Shown piece after piece: positions 21,689 through 64,000 of a stretch of DNA of 64,000 nt. How positions within the stretch are numbered: position 1 is the first letter of the stretch; every line of letters starts with the position of its first letter. This stretch comes from an uncultured Acidobacteriota bacterium (GTDB taxonomy: Bacteria > Acidobacteriota > Thermoanaerobaculia > Gp7-AA8). The stretch spans positions 40,917 to 104,916 of the forward strand of contig CALMZP010000167.1 in the NCBI GenBank assembly GCA_937870635.1, written 5' to 3'. The translations under genes and the position numbers were made by a program. The notes under the pieces are model-generated. The model made no database searches and was not told the DNA's origin. It worked only from the letters and a program-made list of their open reading frames with translations.

Positions 21689-21734
21689 GAGGCGATGTTT
21701 GCGCCGGATTTAACTTGCCGATGGAGGCTGTCCC

Positions 21735-25286
<3,552 letters not shown>

Positions 25287-31476: not shown

Positions 31477-31866
31477 ATGGGAAAAACGATCGAGACGTTG
31501 AACCGGAACGAGCTTATCTCCCGACTGCGTCGTGAGTTGATGCAGGGTACGGACGAAGAAAACTCGGTATGTAAGGTAGCCGCCGAGCGCGGCGTGTTCT
31601 GCAAAGGGTTCACGCGTTACACCGACGAAGAGTTCCGCAAACGCTACGACTGGATCGTGGCCAAGAACCCGGTCATGACCCGCGAGGACCTGGAGCGGAT
31701 CGCCAATGACTGGCAGCTCGGGCAGCAGGAAGTCCACGAGCTGCCCACGGCGTGCGACGTCCAGCAGAAGGTCTACGACACGTGCCGCGGATGGAACGAC
31801 TTCACCAATGAACAGCTCGCGAAGTTTTACTTCCAGCTCACGGGCGACGAGATAGCAATCCTATAG
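31477..31866 (+). CDS. Small hypothetical protein with four Cys residues
   Basis: Perfect GGAGG RBS 6 nt before the ATG at 31477. 129 aa. Divergent from the radical-SAM-like gene. Its stop lies 5 nt before the next start. Confidence 0.55.
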   Translation: MGKTIETLNRNELISRLRRELMQGTDEENSVCKVAAERGVFCKGFTRYTDEEFRKRYDWIVAKNPVMTREDLERIANDWQLGQQEVHELPTACDVQQKVYDTCRGWNDFTNEQLAKFYFQLTGDEIAIL

Positions 31867-31871
31867 ACTTC

Positions 31872-34553
31872 ATGACCATCACGATCTACCCAGCTCAATT
31901 CGAATCCGACGTAGTCCTCCGCAACGGTCGCACCCTCCGCATCAGGCCCGTCCGGCCCGATGACGGCGGAGCGCTCCTAGCGCTTTACCGTGGCCTCTCG
32001 ACGGACAGCCTCTACATGCGCTTCTTCGACACGCGCAGCGCGGACGCCGCCCTGCGCGATGCGCCGGCCGACGTCGACTACTCCGCGGATTTCGGCGTCG
32101 TGGGAGAGATGGTCGGCGGCATCGTCGGCATCGCTCACTACTTCCGTTCGGCACGGCATCAGAACTGCGCCGAAGTGGCGTTCGCAATCGCCGACAAGGC
32201 GCACGGCGGGGGCATCGGCACGCATCTGCTGCAGAAGCTCGCCGACATCGGACGCACGAAGGGCATCGAGGAGTTTCGCGCCGAGGTGCTGCCGGAAAAC
32301 ACGAAGATGCTCGATGTTTTCCTGTCATCCGGATTCGACGTCCGCAGCAGGTCGGCGGAGGGGACGGTGCACGTCTCGTTCGCGATCGCGCCGACGGAGG
32401 AGTATCAGGACCGTGCGGCGGAACGTTCGCGGAAAGCCGCGTATGCGTCCATGCGGTCGATCTTCTCGCCGCAGACGATCGCCGTCGTCGGCGCAAGCCG
32501 CCGGCGCGGGCAGCTCGGCACGGAGATCCTGCAGAACCTGAAGACCACCGGTTTCCGGGGCAGCCTATTCGCCGTCAACCCGAAAGCGACGGAGATCGAC
32601 GGCGTGCCATCCTATCCCACCGTCGATGCCATACCAGGCAACGTCGATCTGGCCATCATCGCCGTGCCGTCCGACGCCGTCGAATCGGTGATCGACGACT
32701 GTGTGACGAAGGGCGTTCCGGCAGCGGTCGTCATCACCGCCGGATTCGGAGAGACCGGCGAGGCCGGAAGGGCAGCCGAACGGCGTCTCCTCGACAAGGT
32801 GCGCGCCTCGGGGATGCGCATGGTCGGCCCGAACTGCATGGGCGTGATCAACAGCGATCCCGCGGTGAACATGCACGCGACGTTCTCATCGATCTTCCCG
32901 CCGCGCGGAAATGTGGCAATGTCAAGCCAGAGCGGGGCGCTGGGGCTCGCCATTCTCGACTACGCGCGCAATCTCAACATCGGGTTTTCGACGTTCATCT
33001 CCGTCGGAAACAAGGCCGACGTCTCCGGCAACGACCTCATCCAGTACTGGGCGGAAGACCCGAACACCGAGGTGATGCTCCTCTATCTCGAGAGCTTCGG
33101 CAATCCGCGCAAGTTCGGCGAGATCGCGCGCCGTGTCGGCCGGAAGAAGCCGATCGTCGCGGTGAAGGCCGGCCGCTCTGCAGCGGGCGCGCGCGCCGCG
33201 TCGTCGCATACCGGTGCGCTGGCCACGAGCGACGCCATCGTCACGAACCTGTTCAAGCAGGCGGGGGTCATCCGCACCGAAACGCTCGAGGAGCTCTTCG
33301 ACGTCGCCGCGCTGCTGGCGAATCAGCCGTTGCCGGCCGGGCGGCGCATCGCGATCGTGACGAACGCCGGAGGCCCGGGCATCCTCGCCGCCGACGCATG
33401 TGAATCGAGCGGCCTGCAGCTTGCCACGATTTGCGAGGAGACGACTGCGAAGCTCCGCGAGTTTCTGCCGGCAGCCGCGAGCGTCGGCAATCCGATCGAC
33501 ATGATCGCCAGCGCGACGGCCGATCAGTACCGCCGCAGCATCGAGCTCGTTCTCGCCGATCCGGGTGTCGACTCGGTCATCATCATCTACATCCCGGTTC
33601 TACCGACGGACGCCCAGGCGGTGGCGGAAGTGATCCGGGAGACCGCCGGAGTCGCCGGAGGCAAGACCCTCATCGCCACATTCATGAGCGCACAGGGCTC
33701 GCCGACCGCCCTCAAGCCCGTCCCCTCGTTCCCCTTTCCTGAACGCGCGGTGGCCGCGCTCGCGCGATCCACGGCGTACGCCGAATGGCGCCGCCGCCCC
33801 GCGGGCAAAGTCGTCAAGTATCCCGACTTCGACCGCGCCGCGATGCGCGCCATCGTCGAGAAGCGCCTCGCGTCCGGCGGCGGCTGGCTCGAGGCGACCG
33901 ACGTCAACGCGCTCTTCGGCGCCGCCAGCATCAAAGTGGCTTCGGTCGAATCGGTGTCCACGGTCTACGAAGCCGTGAATGCCGCCATGCGCATGGGCTT
34001 TCCCGTCGTTCTGAAGGCTCAGGGGTCGGAGCTTCTCCACAAATCCGATGTCGGGGCAGTCAAGCTCGGGATTCAGGACGAACGCGAAATGCGCGAGGCC
34101 TACCTCGAGATGGCCGGCCGCCTCGGAACCAAAATGCAGTCGGCGATCATCCAGCAGATGATCGCCGGCGGCGTCGAGATGATGGCCGGCGCGACGGACG
34201 ATCCCACCTTCGGTCACATCGTCGTTCTCGGCGCGGGCGGGACGCTCGTCGAACTGCTCGGCGACGTCGCCTTCCGCATCCATCCGATGACTGACGTCGA
34301 CGCGGACGACATGTTGCGCGAGATCCGCGTCTCGCGCCTGCTGCAGGGCTACCGCGGATCGAAGCCATGCGATGTCGCCGCCGTGCGCGAAGCGTTGCTG
34401 CGGCTCTCGGCGATGCTGGACGTCTGTCCCGAGATTCGGGAGCTGGACATCAATCCGATCAAGGCGCTGGAACAGGGCGCGATCGTCGTCGACGCCCGCG
34501 TGCGCATCGAACCGATCGCGGCAAGACCGCCGAGCCGTCGAATCTCATATTGA
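31872..34553 (+). CDS. Bifunctional GNAT acetyltransferase / ADP-forming acyl-CoA (acetate-CoA) ligase family protein
   Basis: N-terminal GNAT domain (IRPVRPDDGGALLALY), then a CoA-binding domain and the succinyl-CoA-synthetase-like alpha/beta and ATP-grasp domains. 893 aa. Confidence 0.85.
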   Translation: MTITIYPAQFESDVVLRNGRTLRIRPVRPDDGGALLALYRGLSTDSLYMRFFDTRSADAALRDAPADVDYSADFGVVGEMVGGIVGIAHYFRSARHQNCAEVAFAIADKAHGGGIGTHLLQKLADIGRTKGIEEFRAEVLPENTKMLDVFLSSGFDVRSRSAEGTVHVSFAIAPTEEYQDRAAERSRKAAYASMRSIFSPQTIAVVGASRRRGQLGTEILQNLKTTGFRGSLFAVNPKATEIDGVPSYPTVDAIPGNVDLAIIAVPSDAVESVIDDCVTKGVPAAVVITAGFGETGEAGRAAERRLLDKVRASGMRMVGPNCMGVINSDPAVNMHATFSSIFPPRGNVAMSSQSGALGLAILDYARNLNIGFSTFISVGNKADVSGNDLIQYWAEDPNTEVMLLYLESFGNPRKFGEIARRVGRKKPIVAVKAGRSAAGARAASSHTGALATSDAIVTNLFKQAGVIRTETLEELFDVAALLANQPLPAGRRIAIVTNAGGPGILAADACESSGLQLATICEETTAKLREFLPAAASVGNPIDMIASATADQYRRSIELVLADPGVDSVIIIYIPVLPTDAQAVAEVIRETAGVAGGKTLIATFMSAQGSPTALKPVPSFPFPERAVAALARSTAYAEWRRRPAGKVVKYPDFDRAAMRAIVEKRLASGGGWLEATDVNALFGAASIKVASVESVSTVYEAVNAAMRMGFPVVLKAQGSELLHKSDVGAVKLGIQDEREMREAYLEMAGRLGTKMQSAIIQQMIAGGVEMMAGATDDPTFGHIVVLGAGGTLVELLGDVAFRIHPMTDVDADDMLREIRVSRLLQGYRGSKPCDVAAVREALLRLSAMLDVCPEIRELDINPIKALEQGAIVVDARVRIEPIAARPPSRRISY

Positions 34554-53843: not shown

Positions 53844-56315
<2,472 letters not shown>

Positions 56316-56410
56316 TTTTCCTCCGAGCTGGGATGAGAGTTTTTTGTTCGAGTGCCGCATCCGGAGCAGGCCAGAGGCTGGGCTCACGCAAAAGGCCGGC
56401 GGATTCTAGC

Positions 56411-56526
56411 AGAGAGGGAGGGTCACGTCTGCACTTGGCACTTTCTCCACGAACGGTAGATCGGCGAAGTCGTGGGGAATCTACCGCTCGTGGAGAAAGT
56501 GCCAAGTGCAGACGTGACCCTCCTCC
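56411..56526. repeat. Long near-perfect hairpin (about 45-bp arms, 20-nt loop) in the divergent promoter region between the two PPase genes
   Basis: gagggagggtcacgtctgcacttggcactttctccacgaacggtagat / cggcgaagtcgtggggaatc / taccgctcgtggagaaagtgccaagtgcagacgtgaccctcctccc (one mismatch). Confidence 0.85.
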
Positions 56527-56566
56527 CAGTATCATGCGCGGCCAACCACCCCTGAGGAGACGACCG

Positions 56567-58636
56567 ATGTCGAACTCGATCTATCTGATTCCGCTGGCCG
56601 GGGTCCTCGCCCTGATCTTTGCCCTGGTCAGGAGTTCCTGGATCAGCAGGCAGGACGCCGGGACGCCCGAGATGAAAGTCATCGCCGGCCACATCCGCGA
56701 AGGGGCGATGGCATTCCTCACCCGCGAATATCGCGTCCTGGCGGTATTCGTCGTCGTGGTCTCGGTCCTCCTCGCCTGGGCGAACGCCGCGCGCGCCGAA
56801 AGCTCCTGGCTGATCGGCGTCTCCGTGGCCACCGGCGCGTTCTGCTCGGCCCTGGCCGGCTGGTTCGGAATGAGCGTGGCGACGCATGCAAACGTGCGCA
56901 CGGCGGCAGCCGCGCGGACCAGCATGAACGGCGCGCTGCGCCTCGCATTCGCCGGCGGCGCCGTGATGGGCTTTGCCGTCGTCGGCCTCGGACTACTCGG
57001 ACTGTCGCTTCTGTACATCCTCTACGAGCGCTTGTTCGCCTCCGCCGATCCGCAGGCGACGATGATCCGCAACATCAACGTGCTCTCCGGCTTCTCGTTC
57101 GGGGCGAGCTCCATCGCGCTCTTCGCGAGAGTCGGCGGCGGCATTTACACGAAGGCGGCCGACGTCGGCGCTGACCTCGTCGGCAAGCTCGAGGCGGGAA
57201 TCCCCGAAGACGATCCACGCAACCCGGCCGTCATCGCAGACAACGTCGGCGACAACGTCGGCGACGTCGCCGGCATGGGCGCCGATCTCTTCGAGTCCTA
57301 CGTCGGCTCCATCGTCGGCACCCTCGTCCTCGGCATGGTGGCGACGCAGGTTGGCGGTTCCAGCTATACACCGATGCTCGTGCTCTTTCCGCTCGTGCTC
57401 GCGGCGGTCGGCATCGTGCTCTCGCTCGTGGGTACGACTCTGGTCCGGATGAAAGAGGACGGTGATCCCGGCCGGGCGCTGCAGGCGGGCCCGATCGTCG
57501 CCGCCGTTCTGACTCTCATCGCCATCTGGTTCATCGCGCAGCGCATGCTGCCGGGGACCTACCTGCTCGAAGGGAGAGAGTTCAACGCCACGGGCGTCTT
57601 TTTCGCTACCGTCGCCGGACTCGTCGCCGGCGTCCTGATCGGACTGATCACCGAGTACTACACGTCCGAGGCGCGTGGTCCGGCGCGCGGGATCGCGCGG
57701 GACTCGCTGACGGGCGCGGCGACGAACATCATCAGCGGGCTGGCGGTAGGCATGAGGTCGACCGCGCTTCCGATCGTCGTCCTCGTCGTGGCGATCATCG
57801 TCTCGTATCGCCAGGCGGGCCTGTACGGGATCGCGATCGCCGCGCTGGGCATGTTGCTCACCACGGGAATCCAGCTCGCGGTCGATGCCTACGGCCCGAT
57901 CGCAGACAACGCCGGCGGCATCGCGGAGATGAGCCATCTCGGCAAGGAAGTGCGGGCACGGACGGACAAGCTCGACGCCGTCGGTAACACGACCGCCGCG
58001 ATCGGGAAAGGGTTCGCGATCGGGTCAGCGGCACTCACTGCGCTGGCGCTCTTCGCGGCCTTCAAGGCGACCGTCGGTCTGAAAGTGATCGACCTCAGCG
58101 ACCCCGATGTCATGGGAGGCCTCTTCCTTGGCGGCATGATGCCGTTCCTCTTCTCGGCGATGTCCATGAAGGCGGTGGGACGCGCGGCGTTCAAGATGAT
58201 CGAAGAGGTACGCCGCCAGTTCAAGGAAATACCCGGACTGATGGAGGGGACAGGGAAGGCCGACTACGCGCGTTGCGTCGACATCTCCACGCAGGCCGCG
58301 ATCAAGGAGATGGTCATCCCGGGATTGCTCGCCGTCGTCGCTCCGGTCGTGGTTGGCCTGTACAGCGTTCCTGCGCTCGGCGGTCTGCTGGCGGGCGTCA
58401 CTGTGACGGGCGTGCTGATGGCGATCTTCATGGCCAACGCCGGCGGCGCCTGGGACAACGCGAAGAAGCACATCGAGGCGGGAGCGCACGGCGGGAAGGG
58501 CTCCGATGCTCATCGTGCCGCGGTGGTCGGTGACACGGTCGGCGATCCGTTCAAGGACACATCCGGACCGAGCCTGAACATCCTCATCAAGCTGATGTCG
58601 GTGGTGGCGCTGATCGTGGCGCCGCTGCTGATTTAG
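56567..58636 (+). CDS. hppA: Membrane-bound pyrophosphatase, K+-dependent subfamily (Ala in [10 protein letters not shown])
   Basis: [24 protein letters not shown] and [21 protein letters not shown] motifs. GGAGA RBS followed by an ATG at 56567. Confidence 0.9.
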
Positions 58637-60182: not shown

Positions 60183-60303
60183 GGTTTCCTCCGTTTGAAC
60201 CTGCCTCCACTATCGCAACCGGAATGCCACTGTCACAATAACTATGGACAGAAGGCCCGGGCTGGGAGCCGGCTGGGCGGGCGAGAGGTGTACCATTCGC
60301 GCC

Positions 60304-61467
60304 ATGGCGGCCGGTGTACCACTGATTGATGTCATCCATAAGTTACTGGAATCAAGCGACTTGACGTTCCATGACTTCATGGAGATGGCGCTCTATCACC
60401 CCGAACACGGGTACTACGCCCGGGCCGAAAACCCGGTCGGGAAGGAGGGTGATTACGTCACTTCGCCCAGTCTTTCGCCCCTCTTTTCGGATACGCTGAG
60501 CCTGCTGGTTACCGAATTTGCGAGCCGTGGCGGCGACGAGGTGTCCACGGTTGTGGACATTGGCTGCGGGGATGGCTCGCTCATCCATTCTTTATATGAC
60601 GCGGTTGGAGCGCGGGCGATCTCGCCCGCGACCGAGATGGCGGGCGAGATCGCCCGCCCTCCACGTTTCTACGGGGTCGACCGCTCTCTGAGTCGGGTCA
60701 AGAGAGGGGATGGCGTCCAATTTGCCGGAAGCCTGGCCGAGGTTCCGCGGGAGGGTCAGCATCTCCTGATCGCGAACGAGCTCTTTGACGCTCTTCCGGT
60801 CCATCGCCTGGTCCAGCGTGGCGAGCATCTTCACGAACTGTGGGTGACGGAGCGCAATGGCGAGCTCGACTGGAGCGAGCATGAGGCCCCTGCGGCATTC
60901 GAAGACTATTTCGCGGCGAGAGACATCGAACTGGCCGACGGCCAGTTCGTCGACGTCTCGCTCGAGTGGGAATCGCAATTCGAGGAGATGTGCGGTTTCT
61001 TACGTCGGGGCGTGATTGTCGTCTTTGATTACGGATACCCTGAAAAGAGACTCTTCGACCCGCGGGTTCGGCGCTTCGGCACTTCAGCGTCTTATCGACA
61101 GCAGCGCGTCTCTCGAGATCTTCTGGTCGATCCTGGCCTTCAGGACCTGACAGCACACATCAATTTCACGGATCTGATCCGCGCGGGCGAAAGGAAGGGG
61201 TTACGGACAGTCTTCTTCGATCGGCAGGCGAAGTTCCTTCTCGCCCTGGGCGGCGCGGAGCACGATCTGCTGCGGCCGATCGACCAGGGCATGGATCAGA
61301 GGAAGATCGCCTCGCTCGAAGGCGGACTGGCCTTTCTGCAGCAGCGCGAGGATGCGAAGCGGCTTCTGCTGCCGGACGGGATTGGAGAGGACATCCGGGT
61401 CCTCGTGCAGATCAAAGACCTCGACGATTCGGGGTGGTCTTTTCAAAGACCGCTCTTCAATCGTTGA
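60304..61467 (+). CDS. MidA / NDUFAF7-like SAM-dependent methyltransferase (DUF185) encoded immediately upstream of nuoA
   Basis: FHDFMEMALYHPEHGYY, DFVTSPxLSPLF-like and IANELFDALPVHR motifs. Contains an in-frame REP-derived insertion (AVGARAISPATEMAGEIARPP). Confidence 0.8.
   Translation: MAAGVPLIDVIHKLLESSDLTFHDFMEMALYHPEHGYYARAENPVGKEGDYVTSPSLSPLFSDTLSLLVTEFASRGGDEVSTVVDIGCGDGSLIHSLYDAVGARAISPATEMAGEIARPPRFYGVDRSLSRVKRGDGVQFAGSLAEVPREGQHLLIANELFDALPVHRLVQRGEHLHELWVTERNGELDWSEHEAPAAFEDYFAARDIELADGQFVDVSLEWESQFEEMCGFLRRGVIVVFDYGYPEKRLFDPRVRRFGTSASYRQQRVSRDLLVDPGLQDLTAHINFTDLIRAGERKGLRTVFFDRQAKFLLALGGAEHDLLRPIDQGMDQRKIASLEGGLAFLQQREDAKRLLLPDGIGEDIRVLVQIKDLDDSGWSFQRPLFNR
60604..60664. repeat. 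Paired REP-like palindromes located inside the MidA coding sequence, in-frame
   Basis: gttggagcgcgggcgatctcgcccgcg ... ggcgggcgagatcgcccgccctccac. Confidence 0.8.
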
Positions 61468-61525: not shown

Positions 61526-61885
61526 ATGGCGAACTACTCAGTATTGCTGGTGGCTGCGCTTGTTGTGCTCTCCGTTCCGATTCTCACCCTTTTCATCATC
61601 GTGCCCCTCGTGAGCGCGTATCGAGCGAACAAGGTGAAACTCGAACCGTACGAGTGCGGCGTACCGGCCACGTCTCTTGCCTTCGACCACCGCTTCTCGG
61701 TGCGTTACTTCCTGATCGCTGTACTCTTCATCATCTTCGACGTCGAGACGGTCTTTCTCTTCCCGTGGGCGATCCGGTTCAAACAGCTCGGCTGGTTCGG
61801 GGCTGTCGAGATGGCAATCTTTCTTGCGATTCTCCTGATCGGTTACTTCTACGCGTGGAAGAGGAAGGTTCTTTCATGGGTCTGA
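61526..61885 (+). CDS. nuoA: NADH-quinone oxidoreductase subunit A
   Basis: 3-TM subunit of about 120 aa with a conserved YECG motif (EPYECGVP). Confidence 0.9.
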
Positions 61886-62937
61886 TCGAGAATCGCTTCG
61901 ACTCGAACGTCCTCACCACCTCCGTCGACAAGATTTTCAACTGGGCCCGCAAGTCATCGCTCTGGCCGATGCAGTTCGGCCTCGCCTGCTGCGCGATCGA
62001 GATGATGGCCGTCCTCGATCCGCGTCACGACATGGCTCGGTTCGGCGCGGAGGTCTTCCGCGCCACGCCGCGCCAGGCGGATCTCATGATCGTCTCCGGC
62101 ACGGTCACGGAGAAGATGGCGCCGATCGTCCGCCGGCTGTGGGATCAGATGCCCGAGCCGAAATGGGTGATCGCCATGGGTTCGTGCGCGACTTGCGGCG
62201 GCCCTTACGATACCTACGCCGTCACGCAGGGCGTCGACCGCCTGATCCCTGTCGATGTCTATATCCCCGGTTGCCCGCCGCGCCCCGAGGCTCTCATCTG
62301 GGGGCTGATGGAGCTGCAGAAGAAGATCGAGAAGATGCACATCCTCCGCAAAGGAGGAGAGGCGTACGACTTCGCGCGCGCCGCGGTGCGCGATTCGCTC
62401 CGGCCGCAGCACGAAGGTCCCGCCCTTCGCGCCGAGCAGGCCGCCGCGCAGCTCAAGCCCGCACCGGTATCGGGCGTGAAAAGAGAGGCGAAGCCGAGTG
62501 GGGCGCGGGCGACCCCGCCAGCGCTTTCCGCTCCGGCCCCAACAACCGCGGGCGAGGTCGCCCGCGCTCCACAGGATGCTGCCACTTCCACGGCTGTCCT
62601 GGAAGCCGATGTGCAGCAGGCGGCGGCGCCGGAAGTCGTGCCGGGCGACACGACCGATGGTGCCTCTCCCGCTGTCCCTTTTCACAAGGAAGATCTCACC
62701 CTGCCCGAGCGCATGCAGATGGCCGAGCAGATGGGCGGCAAGTTCGAGACGAAGCTCTTCGCGGCGATGGCGCAGACCGATTGCGGTGCCTGCGGCTGGG
62801 ACTGCGAAGGGTACGCGAACGCCCTCGCTACGGGCGAGACGAAAGACATCTCTCTCTGCGTCCCCGGCGAAGCAGAGACGCTCGATGAGCTGAAGAAGCT
62901 GATGGAACAGGCAGGGAAGGAGTACGAAGGGGCCTGA
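61876..62937 (+). CDS. nuoB: NADH-quinone oxidoreductase subunit B (N2 cluster motifs CCAIEM...GSCATCGG...PGCPP) with a C-terminal extension of about 170 aa: an Ala/Pro-rich linker plus a Cys-rich putative Fe-S domain
   Basis: Canonical NuoB core up to about residue 185. The tail then runs ...[10 protein letters not shown]...[54 protein letters not shown] at 61876 overlaps the nuoA stop. Confidence 0.85.
62498..62572. repeat. Paired (left copy degenerate) REP-like palindromes inside the nuoB linker, in-frame
   Basis: gtggggcgcgggcgaccccgccagcgct ... aaccgcgggcgaggtcgcccgcgctccac, encoding [25 protein letters not shown]. Confidence 0.7.
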
Positions 62938-63926
62938 TGTCAGAGACCACCCCCCCTCCAGCCGCGCCGGCCGCGGCACCCGCCGGCCGCACGGCAAGCG
63001 ACATCAAGCGCGACCCGCTTGTTCTCGTCGCCGTATCGCGCGACTGGGAGGCCGTCACCGACGCGAAGGAGTTCGCGAACGAGATCACTCTCATCGTCGA
63101 TCGCGCTCGCATCGTCTCCGTCTGCCGTGCCTTCAAGGACGAGGGGTTCAGCTATCTCGTCGATCTGTCCGGCGTCGATTACTCGAAGTACCCCGGACAT
63201 GCCGGCCCGCGGTTCGGCGTGGTCTACACCCTCTATTCATTCAACGCCAACAAGCGCGTCAGGCTCCGCACCTTCACCGACGAGAACACCCCCATCCCGT
63301 CCGTGACGGACGTCTGGAAGACCGCGAACTGGCACGAGCGCGAGACCTTCGACATGCTGGGCATCCAGTTCGAAGGTCATCCGAATCTCGAGCGGATCCT
63401 CATGTGGGAAGGCTTCAACGGGCATCCGCTCCGTAAAGACTTTCCGATCCGCGGCATCGACACCGGCGCGCGCATCTATCCCGAGGTCTTCCCGCCCGGC
63501 GGAGGACCGAAACCGGGATCGACGGGCAAGGACGCGAAGGACGTCAATATCTTCCAGGGCGAATGGAACACCTACGGCACCTGGCCTGCCGCGCAGATCG
63601 CCGGACAGCGCGCCGCCGCGAAGACGCAACAGCCCGCAGCGCCGGAGCTCGCCGCGGTTGTCGCGGAAACGGCGAAGCCGACCCAGGAAGCGCCGTGGCA
63701 CAACCCCGATCTTCAGCTGCCCGAGCGGATGAAGATGGCCGAAAAGGGGAGCCTCAAAGACAAGCTCTTCGCGGCGATGGCCCAGACCGACTGCACCGCC
63801 TGCGGCTGGGACTGCGAAGGCTACGCAAACGCGATCGCCACCGGCGAAACCAAAGATCTGACGCTCTGCGTACCGGGCGAACAGGAAACGGAGGACATGC
63901 TGAAGAAGCTGATGTCTGCGGGCTGA
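62937..63926 (+). CDS. nuoC: NADH-quinone oxidoreductase subunit C (30 kDa) with a C-terminal extension of about 130 aa ending in the same Cys-rich putative Fe-S domain
   Basis: NuoC core (…WHERETFDMLGIQFEGHPNLERIL…). The tail runs ...LPERMKMAEK...[55 protein letters not shown] overlap with the nuoB stop. Confidence 0.85.
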   Translation: MSETTPPPAAPAAAPAGRTASDIKRDPLVLVAVSRDWEAVTDAKEFANEITLIVDRARIVSVCRAFKDEGFSYLVDLSGVDYSKYPGHAGPRFGVVYTLYSFNANKRVRLRTFTDENTPIPSVTDVWKTANWHERETFDMLGIQFEGHPNLERILMWEGFNGHPLRKDFPIRGIDTGARIYPEVFPPGGGPKPGSTGKDAKDVNIFQGEWNTYGTWPAAQIAGQRAAAKTQQPAAPELAAVVAETAKPTQEAPWHNPDLQLPERMKMAEKGSLKDKLFAAMAQTDCTACGWDCEGYANAIATGETKDLTLCVPGEQETEDMLKKLMSAG

Positions 63927-63990
63927 CGGTTAACGGTTAACGGTTAACGGTCGAAGGCGACCGTTGAACGCTGACCGGTGATCGTTCATG
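63927..63990. terminator. Heptamer-repeat hairpin (ACGGTTA)x3 ... imperfect complement, 3' of nuoC
   Basis: gacggttaacggttaacggttaacggtcgaaggcgaccgttgaacgctgaccggtgatcgttcatg. Confidence 0.45.
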
Positions 63991-64000
63991 TTTGACGTCC

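Follow-up and report, generated by a model that had tools for sequence, protein, structure and literature searches.

What could two subunits of respiratory complex I gain from a cysteine-rich domain at their C-terminal ends? This question is raised by a stretch of 64,000 nucleotides (contig CALMZP010000167.1, positions 40,917 to 104,916 of the forward strand; assembly GCA_937870635.1) from an uncultured soil member of the Thermoanaerobaculia, phylum Acidobacteriota. In this stretch, referred to below as the window, nuoB and nuoC each continue past the end of the conserved subunit into a linker and a four-Cys domain that resembles the N-terminal Fe-S domain of RnfB. The fusion had been noticed in an initial annotation made from the sequence alone. 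Our analysis indicates that the fusion is genuine, that related operons carrying it are without nuoEFG, and that the two tails may be mobile, tethered carriers of electrons.

NuoB and NuoC end in related four-Cys tails

The nuo genes of the window and the parts of the two extended proteins are as follows.

61526-61885, + strand: nuoA, the first gene of the operon, 119 aa (PF00507 Oxidored_q4, E = 3e-33)
61876-62937, + strand: nuoB, a single unbroken open reading frame (ORF) with its ATG at 61876 and its stop at 62935-62937, 353 aa
62356-62676, + strand: conserved post-core segment of NuoB (aa 161-200), then a flexible linker rich in Ala, Pro and Glu (aa 201-267)
61876-62355, + strand: NuoB core, aa 1-160 (PF01058 Oxidored_q6 at residues 38-147, E = 1e-29)
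62677-62937, + strand: NuoB tail, consisting of a lead-in helix and the four-Cys domain, ending AGKEYEGA before the stop
62937-63926, + strand: nuoC, 329 aa
62937-63461, + strand: NuoC core, aa 1-175 (PF00329 Complex1_30kDa at residues 53-173, E = 1.5e-45; TIGR01961)
63462-63692, + strand: conserved lineage-specific extension of NuoC (EVFPPGGGPKPGSTGKD...GEWNTYGTWPAAQI) and Ala/Pro-rich linker to aa 252
63693-63926, + strand: NuoC tail, consisting of a lead-in helix (PWHNPDLQLPERMKMAE) and the four-Cys domain, followed by the stop
63988-64000, + strand: start of nuoD, running off the window; the same DNA continues in loci L001 and L002, where the translation MFDVHEMEVNFGPQHPSTHG... is the N-terminus of NuoD

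Both cores are genuine complex I subunits. NCBIfam NuoB subfamily models scored above their cut-offs and matched residues 6-156 of NuoB, in which the ligand motifs of cluster N2 (CC..E, GSC..CGG and PGCPP/IPGCPP) were all intact. NuoC scored 145 bits with TIGR01961 against a cut-off of 122, and its gene lies between nuoB and nuoD. The NCBIfam models place the end of the core at residue 155-160 in NuoB and at residue 173-175 in NuoC, and the extensions are therefore ~190 aa and ~150 aa long, respectively. The initial annotation had rightly described both subunits as extended, and its figure of 130-170 aa is replaced by these lengths. The part of the NuoC extension next to the core is conserved, with invariant columns at 176-217 in our alignment (A3).

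The four tail cysteines are Cys303, 306, 310 and 328 in NuoB (codons within 62782-62859) and Cys286, 289, 293 and 311 in NuoC (codons within 63792-63869). In both tails they are spaced C-x2-C-x3-C-x17-C, which corrects the last interval of x16 given in the initial annotation. The two tails aligned by BLASTP over 102 aa with 66% identity (E = 2e-37, far above chance) and were identical at 44 of the 52 positions of the Cys core; they are thus strongly similar, although the earlier term 'near-identical' was slightly generous. They share the near-invariant motif AMAQTDCxACGxDCEGYAxAxxxGExxDxxLCxPGExET, preceded by a conserved lead-in helix with the pattern P[FW]H..L.L.ERM.[ML]AE.

The fusion is present in independent assemblies and in related genomes

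The identical 329-aa NuoC was found in two independent short-read assemblies of SRA data (L001 and L002), in which the NuoB tail lies 5' of NuoC and the N-terminus of NuoD is encoded 3' of it. We then scanned one genome per GTDB species for the tail pattern, which gave 317 stretches, and analysed the best 80 loci. All of these were from metagenome-assembled genomes (MAGs) of Thermoanaerobaculia/Acidobacteriota, chiefly from soil. A hidden Markov model (HMM) of the tail detected one copy in each of 77 NuoB ORFs and 45 NuoC ORFs, and in all of these related genes the core and the tail were within one stop-free ORF. An assembly or frameshift artefact was rejected on these two grounds, that is, because the same protein occurs in two assemblies and because the ORFs are unbroken in dozens of related genomes. 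The fusion observed in the initial annotation was therefore upheld with the minor corrections given here, and the survey of relatives that it had called for yielded 80 species-level MAGs with the NuoB fusion, about half of them with the NuoC fusion as well. In 39 loci the tail was present on NuoB only. Where NuoC had no tail, its end was still rich in Ala, Pro and Lys and had an acidic tip.

Searches with the proteins themselves gave the same picture. Full-length NuoC retrieved more than 100 clusters of 314-336 aa at 72-93% identity, many of which carried precomputed PF04060 and PF00329 matches, and the named ones were from Thermoanaerobaculia or Acidobacteriota. A search of a 5.8-billion-protein index with the tail alone returned only short fragments, which helped to name the class rather than the architectures. 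Cys286, 289, 293 and 311 were unchanged across 53 NuoC sequences, and all four Cys were kept in 146 of 146 copies of the domain, those on other architectures included; the conservation in orthologues that the reading of the initial annotation called for was thus found.

A 120-aa protein from ENA (P0004) consists of the NuoD N-terminus (MFDVHEMEVNFGPQHPSTHGVLRV...) joined in frame to a tail of the NuoC type. Most probably, this ORF is an assembly chimera that arose at the repeated sequence of the tails.

The tails are related to the N-terminal Fe-S domain of RnfB

PF04060 ('FeS') matched the NuoB tail at residues 300-330 with 25.1 bits, which passes the gathering score of 23. The same family was passed by, or precomputed for, many NuoC orthologues and all of the other architectures described below. 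Two further models matched part of their length. The N-terminal part of NF004859, an NCBIfam model named 'sulfite reductase subunit alpha', gave E = 4e-25 for the NuoB tail and 4e-30 for the NuoC tail. The matches covered model positions 33-146 of 539 only, with 88 and 105 bits compared to the whole-protein cut-off of 432, and a Pfam scan of NuoB and NuoC detected neither an FAD nor an NAD domain, so that the module is shared with this family but the proteins do not belong to it. TIGR01944 (rnfB) gave E = 2e-8 and 4e-9 for the NuoB and NuoC tails. Here too the proteins are not members, as only positions 29-92 of 190, the FdI-like region, were matched with 33.8 and 36.3 bits against a cut-off of 68.7 and the genomic context is nuo, not rnf.

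A broad profile of the module built from all architectures (A4) was compared to the PDB and matched two RnfB N-terminal domains, that of the Azotobacter protein (8ahx_B, E = 9.9e-6) and that of the Clostridium tetanomorphum protein (7zc6_B, E = 1.5e-5). In both alignments the four Cys were in register, with one additional residue in RnfB between the second and the third. The narrow profile of the tails (A2) found neither RnfB nor another relative in the PDB. A Foldseek search of the PDB gave no match, and the fold searches thus provided no confirmation of a ferredoxin-like fold. Assignment to PF04060 rests on sequence and on the Cys register, the fold not being included, and on this footing the tails are taken to be homologous to the PF04060/RnfB N-terminal Fe-S domain. 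The likeness to PF04060 and RnfB proposed in the initial annotation was thereby borne out: the HMM searches matched PF04060, PF01058, PF00329 and rnfB, and the Cys aligned to those of the RnfB structures.

The related operons have no nuoEFG

The window stops at nuoD, and the rest of the gene set was read in relatives, within 10 kb on either side of each related operon. The locus L003, which shares the upstream genes of the window and encodes a NuoC 79% identical to ours, has the order nuoA, nuoB-FeS, nuoC-FeS, nuoD, H, I, J, K, L, M and N, followed by ATP synthase genes. A tblastn map of the 80 loci revealed the same nuo order, with nuoD followed directly by nuoH wherever the locus reaches nuoH. 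In these loci, L003 included, no nuoEFG is present between nuoD and nuoH. As far as the operon goes, this is an 11-subunit complex I without the N-module, in agreement with the guess in the initial annotation that nuoEFG might be missing.

A conserved domain on a variable linker

To compare the regions of NuoB we calculated the mean pairwise identity across 76 genomes.

Core, residues 30-160: 95% identity, length nearly fixed
Post-core segment, residues 161-200: 82% identity, length 20-41 aa
Linker, residues 201-267: 38% identity, length 36-67 aa
Tail, residues 268-345: 78% identity, length 76-78 aa

In the relatives, the post-core segment and linker together form a spacer of 86-120 aa (median 107) that is composed of 25% Ala, 14% Pro and 9% Glu. 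The NuoC linker has a median length of 56 aa (range 53-149). The isolated NuoB tail was predicted by AlphaFold2 as five helices with a predicted local distance difference test score (pLDDT) of 89.6. For full-length NuoC the core was predicted confidently, residues 152-249 had a pLDDT below 50, and the tail was not docked onto the core in this model, in which the linker and much of the C-terminal half were of low confidence. Ferredoxins are typically acidic, and the tails are acidic as well, with a median net charge over ~70 residues of -9 for those on NuoB and -5 for those on NuoC.

The same module occurs on other complex I proteins and on a reductase

The initial annotation had correctly located the module on NuoB and NuoC, but it is not unique to them. 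A profile search of 1.84 billion representative proteins gave 889 matches at E <=1e-3, and the architectures were read among the best 150. About 70 of these were proteins in which the module precedes an FNR-type reductase (FeS-FNR); the others included NuoB-FeS, NuoC-FeS and NuoI-FeS. One NuoI-FeS protein, P0238 (L085, 4448-5638), has two C-terminal PF04060 domains and is encoded in an operon of the order nuoA-B-C-D-H-I-J-K-L, again without nuoEFG. Another, P0207 (L086), has nuoH-J-K-L downstream. P0238 and its homologues (P0348-P0466) belong to a family that comprises at least 120 clusters of ~400 aa; where a name is given, the label is that of a Myxococcales or Deltaproteobacteria MAG.

In each of the four loci that were read, nuoN is followed directly by the gene of a different protein of ~250 aa, which consists of an N-terminal domain, an acidic linker and the FeS module:

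L088, 1742-2500: post-nuoN FeS protein
L091, 297-1040: post-nuoN FeS protein
L092, 304-1062: post-nuoN FeS protein
L093, 10001-10783: post-nuoN FeS protein

Its N-terminal domain matched no Pfam family, and the protein may be a twelfth subunit. In another locus (L087, 1-891; JGI Ga0633516_0395212), an ORF that is open at the start of the contig ends in three tandem FeS domains with Ala/Pro linkers between them. This ORF is immediately followed by a nuoC in which a tail likewise begins, and it is most likely a NuoB with three tails. The number of domains per subunit thus ranges from 0 to 1 on NuoC, is 1 or 3 (L087) on NuoB, and is 1 or 2 on NuoI.

Outside complex I, one FeS-FAD-NAD(P)H protein (P0235) is encoded after the C-terminus of a molybdopterin enzyme and a NIR_SIR hemoprotein gene (L090, 1-4002; Logan SRR25565216_292876). 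This single locus suggests that the FeS module acts as a ferredoxin between the FNR and a nitrite or sulfite reductase of the ferredoxin type, and that in a 'sulfite reductase alpha subunit' of the PRK06214 type this module takes the place of the flavodoxin domain of CysJ. For another FeS-FNR protein, P0220, the genomic context was uninformative. A 225-aa Thermoanaerobaculia protein with a Cys-rich N-terminal domain and the FeS module, annotated '(Fe-S)-binding protein', forms a cluster of 61 members (P0194; e.g. HMF08508.1 and HKD10659.1); tblastn against the 80 related loci found none in the 10 kb on either side of the nuo genes.

A short motif, APF[DNS]AEQR.WL, was present both in the N-termini of FeS-FNR proteins (P0221, P0230) and in the linker of a NuoI-FeS protein (P0210, residues ~203-227). 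A weaker look-alike of it occurs within the conserved post-core segment of NuoB.

The two tails belong to distinct classes

The similarity of the two tails had been ascribed in the initial annotation to recent duplication or gene conversion. We rejected this explanation after comparing orthologues with paralogues, comparing synonymous codons and constructing a tail tree. The NuoB (B-type) tails are characterised by DCGACG, ETLD and a C-terminal AGKE[FY]EGA, the NuoC (C-type) tails by DCTACG and ETE[SD]M, and both classes are kept across genomes. The window tails are identical to their orthologues in L003 at 48 and 46 of 52 positions, compared to 44 of 52 for the paralogue. At conserved residues, the fraction of identical codons between paralogues was 0.66 and 0.61 within a genome and 0.64 and 0.65 between genomes, where codon usage alone predicts 0.51 and orthologues gave 0.62-0.71. 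In a neighbour-joining tree, the main group of C tails was separate from the B tails. Recent gene conversion is not supported, since the B and C classes are distinct, orthologues are closer than paralogues, and codon identity is equal within and between genomes. Instead, these comparisons indicate that the likeness of the NuoB and NuoC tails reflects purifying selection on both copies. A few genomes (L052, L071, L073, L076 and L077, plus the protein P0195) have B-like tails on NuoC. This may be due to a second duplication or may be the ancestral state, a choice for which a neighbour-joining tree of 70 aa has no power.

The tails as probable tethered electron carriers

We lean towards the view that the tails are probably, though by no means assuredly, mobile tethered [4Fe-4S] carriers between cytoplasmic redox enzymes and the cluster chain of NuoI and NuoB. 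Cluster binding, mobility, the direction of electron flow, the identity of the partners and the docking site are all points that we infer. In such a mechanism, the acidic domain of ~80 aa would swing on its disordered Ala/Pro/Glu-rich linker and take one electron from a low-potential donor in the cytoplasm. Candidate donors would be ferredoxin-reducing enzymes such as the pyruvate:ferredoxin/flavodoxin oxidoreductase (PFOR) encoded in the window, an FNR-type reductase or a hydrogenase. The loaded domain would dock on the exposed top of the Q-module, the usual place of the N-module, and the electron would pass from the tail to the NuoI clusters (N6a/N6b), to N2 in NuoB and to quinone. The tail would in effect be a built-in ferredoxin, and the enzyme a self-contained low-potential-donor:quinone oxidoreductase that might also run in reverse.

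This view draws on both known systems and the distribution of the module. The N-terminal domain of RnfB, FdI, has been described as 'highly mobile', is flanked on both sides by a flexible, solvent-exposed linker and was proposed to be an electron shuttle; its fold is common to the N-terminal [4Fe-4S] domain of the corrinoid/Fe-S protein (CFeSP) (PMC9588780). In Thermus, NuoC's C-terminal loop extends to the N-module subunit NuoG (PMC3144371), which implies that a C-terminal tail would emerge at the docking place of the N-module, beside NuoI. Since a PFOR is encoded in the window, the organism is expected to make low-potential electrons in need of an outlet. The module recurs on several parts of complex I, namely NuoB, NuoC, NuoI and the post-nuoN protein, and its closest relative outside complex I appears from profile similarity to be the FeS-FNR module of NF004859; we count both in favour of a shuttle. 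The varying copy number resembles, by analogy, that of swinging-arm domains. Collectively, the conserved domain on a variable linker, the acidity, the copy number and the varied attachment fit a swinging arm more closely than they fit a fixed relay, sensor or assembly aid.

Several points weigh against a carrier. Every host organism is an uncultured MAG, and the proposed role is drawn from sequence and models. The PF04060 score of the NuoC tail (residues 283-313) is 21.7 bits, slightly under the gathering score of 23. The 80 loci were fetched by means of the NuoB tail itself, so that finding it in every one of them follows from the way they were selected. The NuoC tail is dispensable, because about half of the related genomes do without it. 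No partner gene was found beside the operon, in the window or in the 80 related loci, and no site of docking came to light. Elsewhere, the genome may carry a nuoEFG cluster of its own or another operon, one for 14 subunits, and a complete complex I was reported for most of the (cultured) Acidobacteriota surveyed (PMC12361115). A long linker, moreover, does not exclude a permanently docked domain.

Permanent docking is the essence of a fixed relay, in which the domains would sit on the peripheral arm and lengthen the wire by an extra entry cluster, the linkers being mere connectors. Homology and conserved Cys fit this equally well, as does an operon without the N-module; the lead-in helix (PFH/PWH..L.L.ERM.MAE) and the well-conserved post-core segment could provide the docking surfaces, and off-pathway or terminal clusters occur in other complex I relatives. 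We nevertheless regard a fixed relay as unlikely, given the length, low identity and predicted disorder of the linkers, the tandem triplication on one NuoB (L087), the attachment to different subunits in different lineages and the dispensable NuoC copy, and given that the homologous RnfB domain is mobile (PMC9588780). The same architecture might also serve electron output, with the complex running in reverse to oxidise quinol at the expense of the proton-motive force and the tails supplying ferredoxin-dependent enzymes, such as a reductive PFOR or assimilatory reductases. Sequence leaves the direction unfixed, and direction is undecidable in silico. The domain's relatives operate at low potential and Rnf can run both ways (PMC9588780), the FeS-FNR relatives hand electrons to reductases, and the ATP synthase and H+-pyrophosphatase genes that adjoin the operon are a possible source of proton-motive force. 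The operon, however, has no linked reductive pathway, and the 11-subunit enzyme that has been studied physiologically points to quinol production from cytoplasmic donors (PMC11238625); we therefore give output a low probability.

A non-catalytic role appears quite improbable to us. The tails could be redox or oxygen sensors that gate activity, donors or assembly aids for the clusters N2, N6a and N6b, or structural or interaction modules that bind Zn. An exposed [4Fe-4S] domain would be oxygen-labile and hence suited to sensing, four-Cys motifs can bind Zn, the ferredoxin-like fold found no confirmation in the fold searches, and the conserved gene upstream of nuoA encodes a methyltransferase of an assembly type. 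Against this stand the specific homology to redox-active [4Fe-4S] domains of electron paths and the fact that the nearest relatives are joined to an FNR module, a purely electron-transfer setting; tandem copies also suit a sensor or assembly aid poorly. Very improbable indeed, in our estimate, is an adaptor at which an NAD(P)H-oxidising module that is encoded apart, either an FNR-type or a NuoEF/HoxEFU-type flavoprotein, would dock; this would leave the enzyme an NAD(P)H dehydrogenase. The idea comes from the closest relatives of the tails, which form the N-terminal part of FeS-FAD-NAD(P)H proteins (NF004859) and give a 'Rosetta-stone' hint that an FNR module is the natural partner of the tail. 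No FNR-type gene was present among the large window ORFs that were scanned, and tblastn with the FNR module and two unknown N-terminal domains found no match in the window or within +/-10 kb of the 80 related operons; these searches covered the window and the operon surroundings, not whole genomes. Such an adaptor would in any case be a special case of the shuttle, with one donor, and no true alternative to it.

A wider proposal builds on the tethered carrier. 'Tethered ferredoxin' modules may have been recruited repeatedly as the electron-entry device of complex I enzymes that lack the N-module, with no need for NuoEFG or a soluble ferredoxin. Such modules would number one to three on NuoB, a single one on NuoC and one or two on NuoI, or would be carried by a twelfth subunit whose gene follows nuoN. 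We consider repeated recruitment possible, but rate it at somewhat below an even chance.

Comparison with known Fe-S carriers and 11-subunit enzymes

Complex I with 11 subunits and the mobile Fe-S domain of PF04060 are both already known, and the fusions are in the databases under generic names. In the open, searchable part of the literature, outside of which most subscription journals lie, we found no PF04060 fusion to NuoB, NuoC or NuoI and no proposal that such a fusion is the missing donor, and the literature on Thermoanaerobaculia complex I does not describe the fusion. The statement of the initial annotation that it was undescribed agrees with this.

The tails share with RnfB FdI (PF04060; 7ZC6, 8AHX, 9ERI) the family, the Cys register, a small helical domain and flexible linkers. 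They differ in position, as FdI is N-terminal and follows a membrane anchor in Rnf, whereas the tails are C-terminal on NuoB and NuoC after a linker of ~100 aa or ~55 aa. They also differ in spacing (C-x2-C-x4-C-x16-C in RnfB) and in having the additional conserved lead-in helix. The N-terminal domain of the CFeSP large subunit (CfsA/AcsC) is of the same Pfam family. It carries a low-potential [4Fe-4S] cluster on a flexible linker and receives electrons from an external donor. Its host, however, is an unrelated corrinoid TIM barrel and its role is the reactivation of cobalt; the relation to the tails is indirect, because no CFeSP chain was among the PDB profile matches. The closest relatives, the NF004859/PRK06214 FeS-FAD-NAD(P)H proteins, have the lead-in helix, the same C-x2-C-x3-C-x17-C spacing and Ala/Pro-rich linkers. 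In these proteins the module precedes an FNR-type reductase and has a near-neutral charge, in contrast to the acidic tails. To our knowledge, the function of this family is uncharacterised.

Among complex I enzymes, the 11-subunit NUO11 forms (cyanobacterial and plastid NDH-1, and the Desulfitobacterium, Chlorobi and Bacteroides types) have the same nuoABCDHIJKLMN set. Their electron donor has been given as unknown or as ferredoxin (PMC3144371, PMC11238625). They either use a soluble ferredoxin, as NDH-1 does with the help of additional subunits (NdhS/V/O), or are not known to have a dedicated partner, and no redox domain fused to NuoB, NuoC or NuoI has been reported for them. The NuoC extension of Bacillaceae is N-terminal and unrelated to the C-terminal tails. 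Swinging-arm carriers, such as the lipoyl domains of 2-oxo-acid dehydrogenase E2 and the mobile [2Fe-2S] domain of NqrF, likewise consist of a small conserved domain on Ala/Pro-rich linkers. This likeness is an analogy alone, as the sequences are unrelated and the cofactors different. Lipoyl domains of E2 occur in variable tandem copy number (1-3). The mobile Fd domain of NqrF has been cited as a parallel to FdI (PMC9588780).

The donor of complex I enzymes without an N-module has been an open question for more than 10 years, and the enzyme described here appears to bring its own candidate input device. If the tails are redox shuttles, complex I would gain a new functional class, and a clonable object would be at hand for studying low-potential electron entry into the Q-module. 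The tails would also extend to respiratory complex I the swinging-arm principle of lipoyl, biotinyl and acyl carriers, proposed as well for RnfB and NqrF, and annotations would need correction, since tail fragments are now named 'sulfite reductase flavoprotein' or '(Fe-S)-binding protein'. Repeated recruitment, if true, would give the first genetically defined answer to the donor question for 11-subunit complex I in several large uncultured lineages.

Neighbouring genes and other features

Other features of the window near the nuo operon and further upstream are as follows.

60244-61467, + strand: PF02636 (NDUFAF7/MidA-type) methyltransferase immediately upstream of nuoA, a context gene (E = 4e-30)
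53847-56405, - strand, and 56333-58636, + strand: two H+-translocating pyrophosphatase genes, head to head and divergent, a few kb upstream of nuo
21714-25283, + strand: single-chain PFOR, 1183 aa
31812-34550, + strand: large GNAT acetyltransferase with CoA-binding, Succ_CoA_lig and ATP-grasp domains

The nuoC-nuoD spacer (window 63926-63990; 61 nt) contains 3.7 copies of the heptamer ACGGTTA and is predicted to fold as a long hairpin of -34 kcal/mol (z = -5.6 compared to shuffled sequences). The nuoC-nuoD gap in L003 is only 7 nt, and the element is therefore specific to the lineage of the window. Within the operon, the hairpin might serve in the processing or the stability of the mRNA.

The PF02636 gene precedes nuoA in most of the 80 related loci. 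PF02636 (Methyltransf_28) is the family to which NDUFAF7/MidA belongs, an arginine methyltransferase whose target in the assembly of mitochondrial complex I is the homologue of NuoD. An NDUFAF7-like gene next to a nuo operon thus represents a conserved bacterial pairing. One or two pyrophosphatase matches were found at the corresponding place in the related loci. The PFOR consists of POR_N, PFOR_II, POR, EKR, two [4Fe-4S] and TPP_enzyme_C domains. The protein encoded at 31812-34550 has the architecture of a Pat-like protein acetyltransferase or ADP-forming acyl-CoA synthetase.

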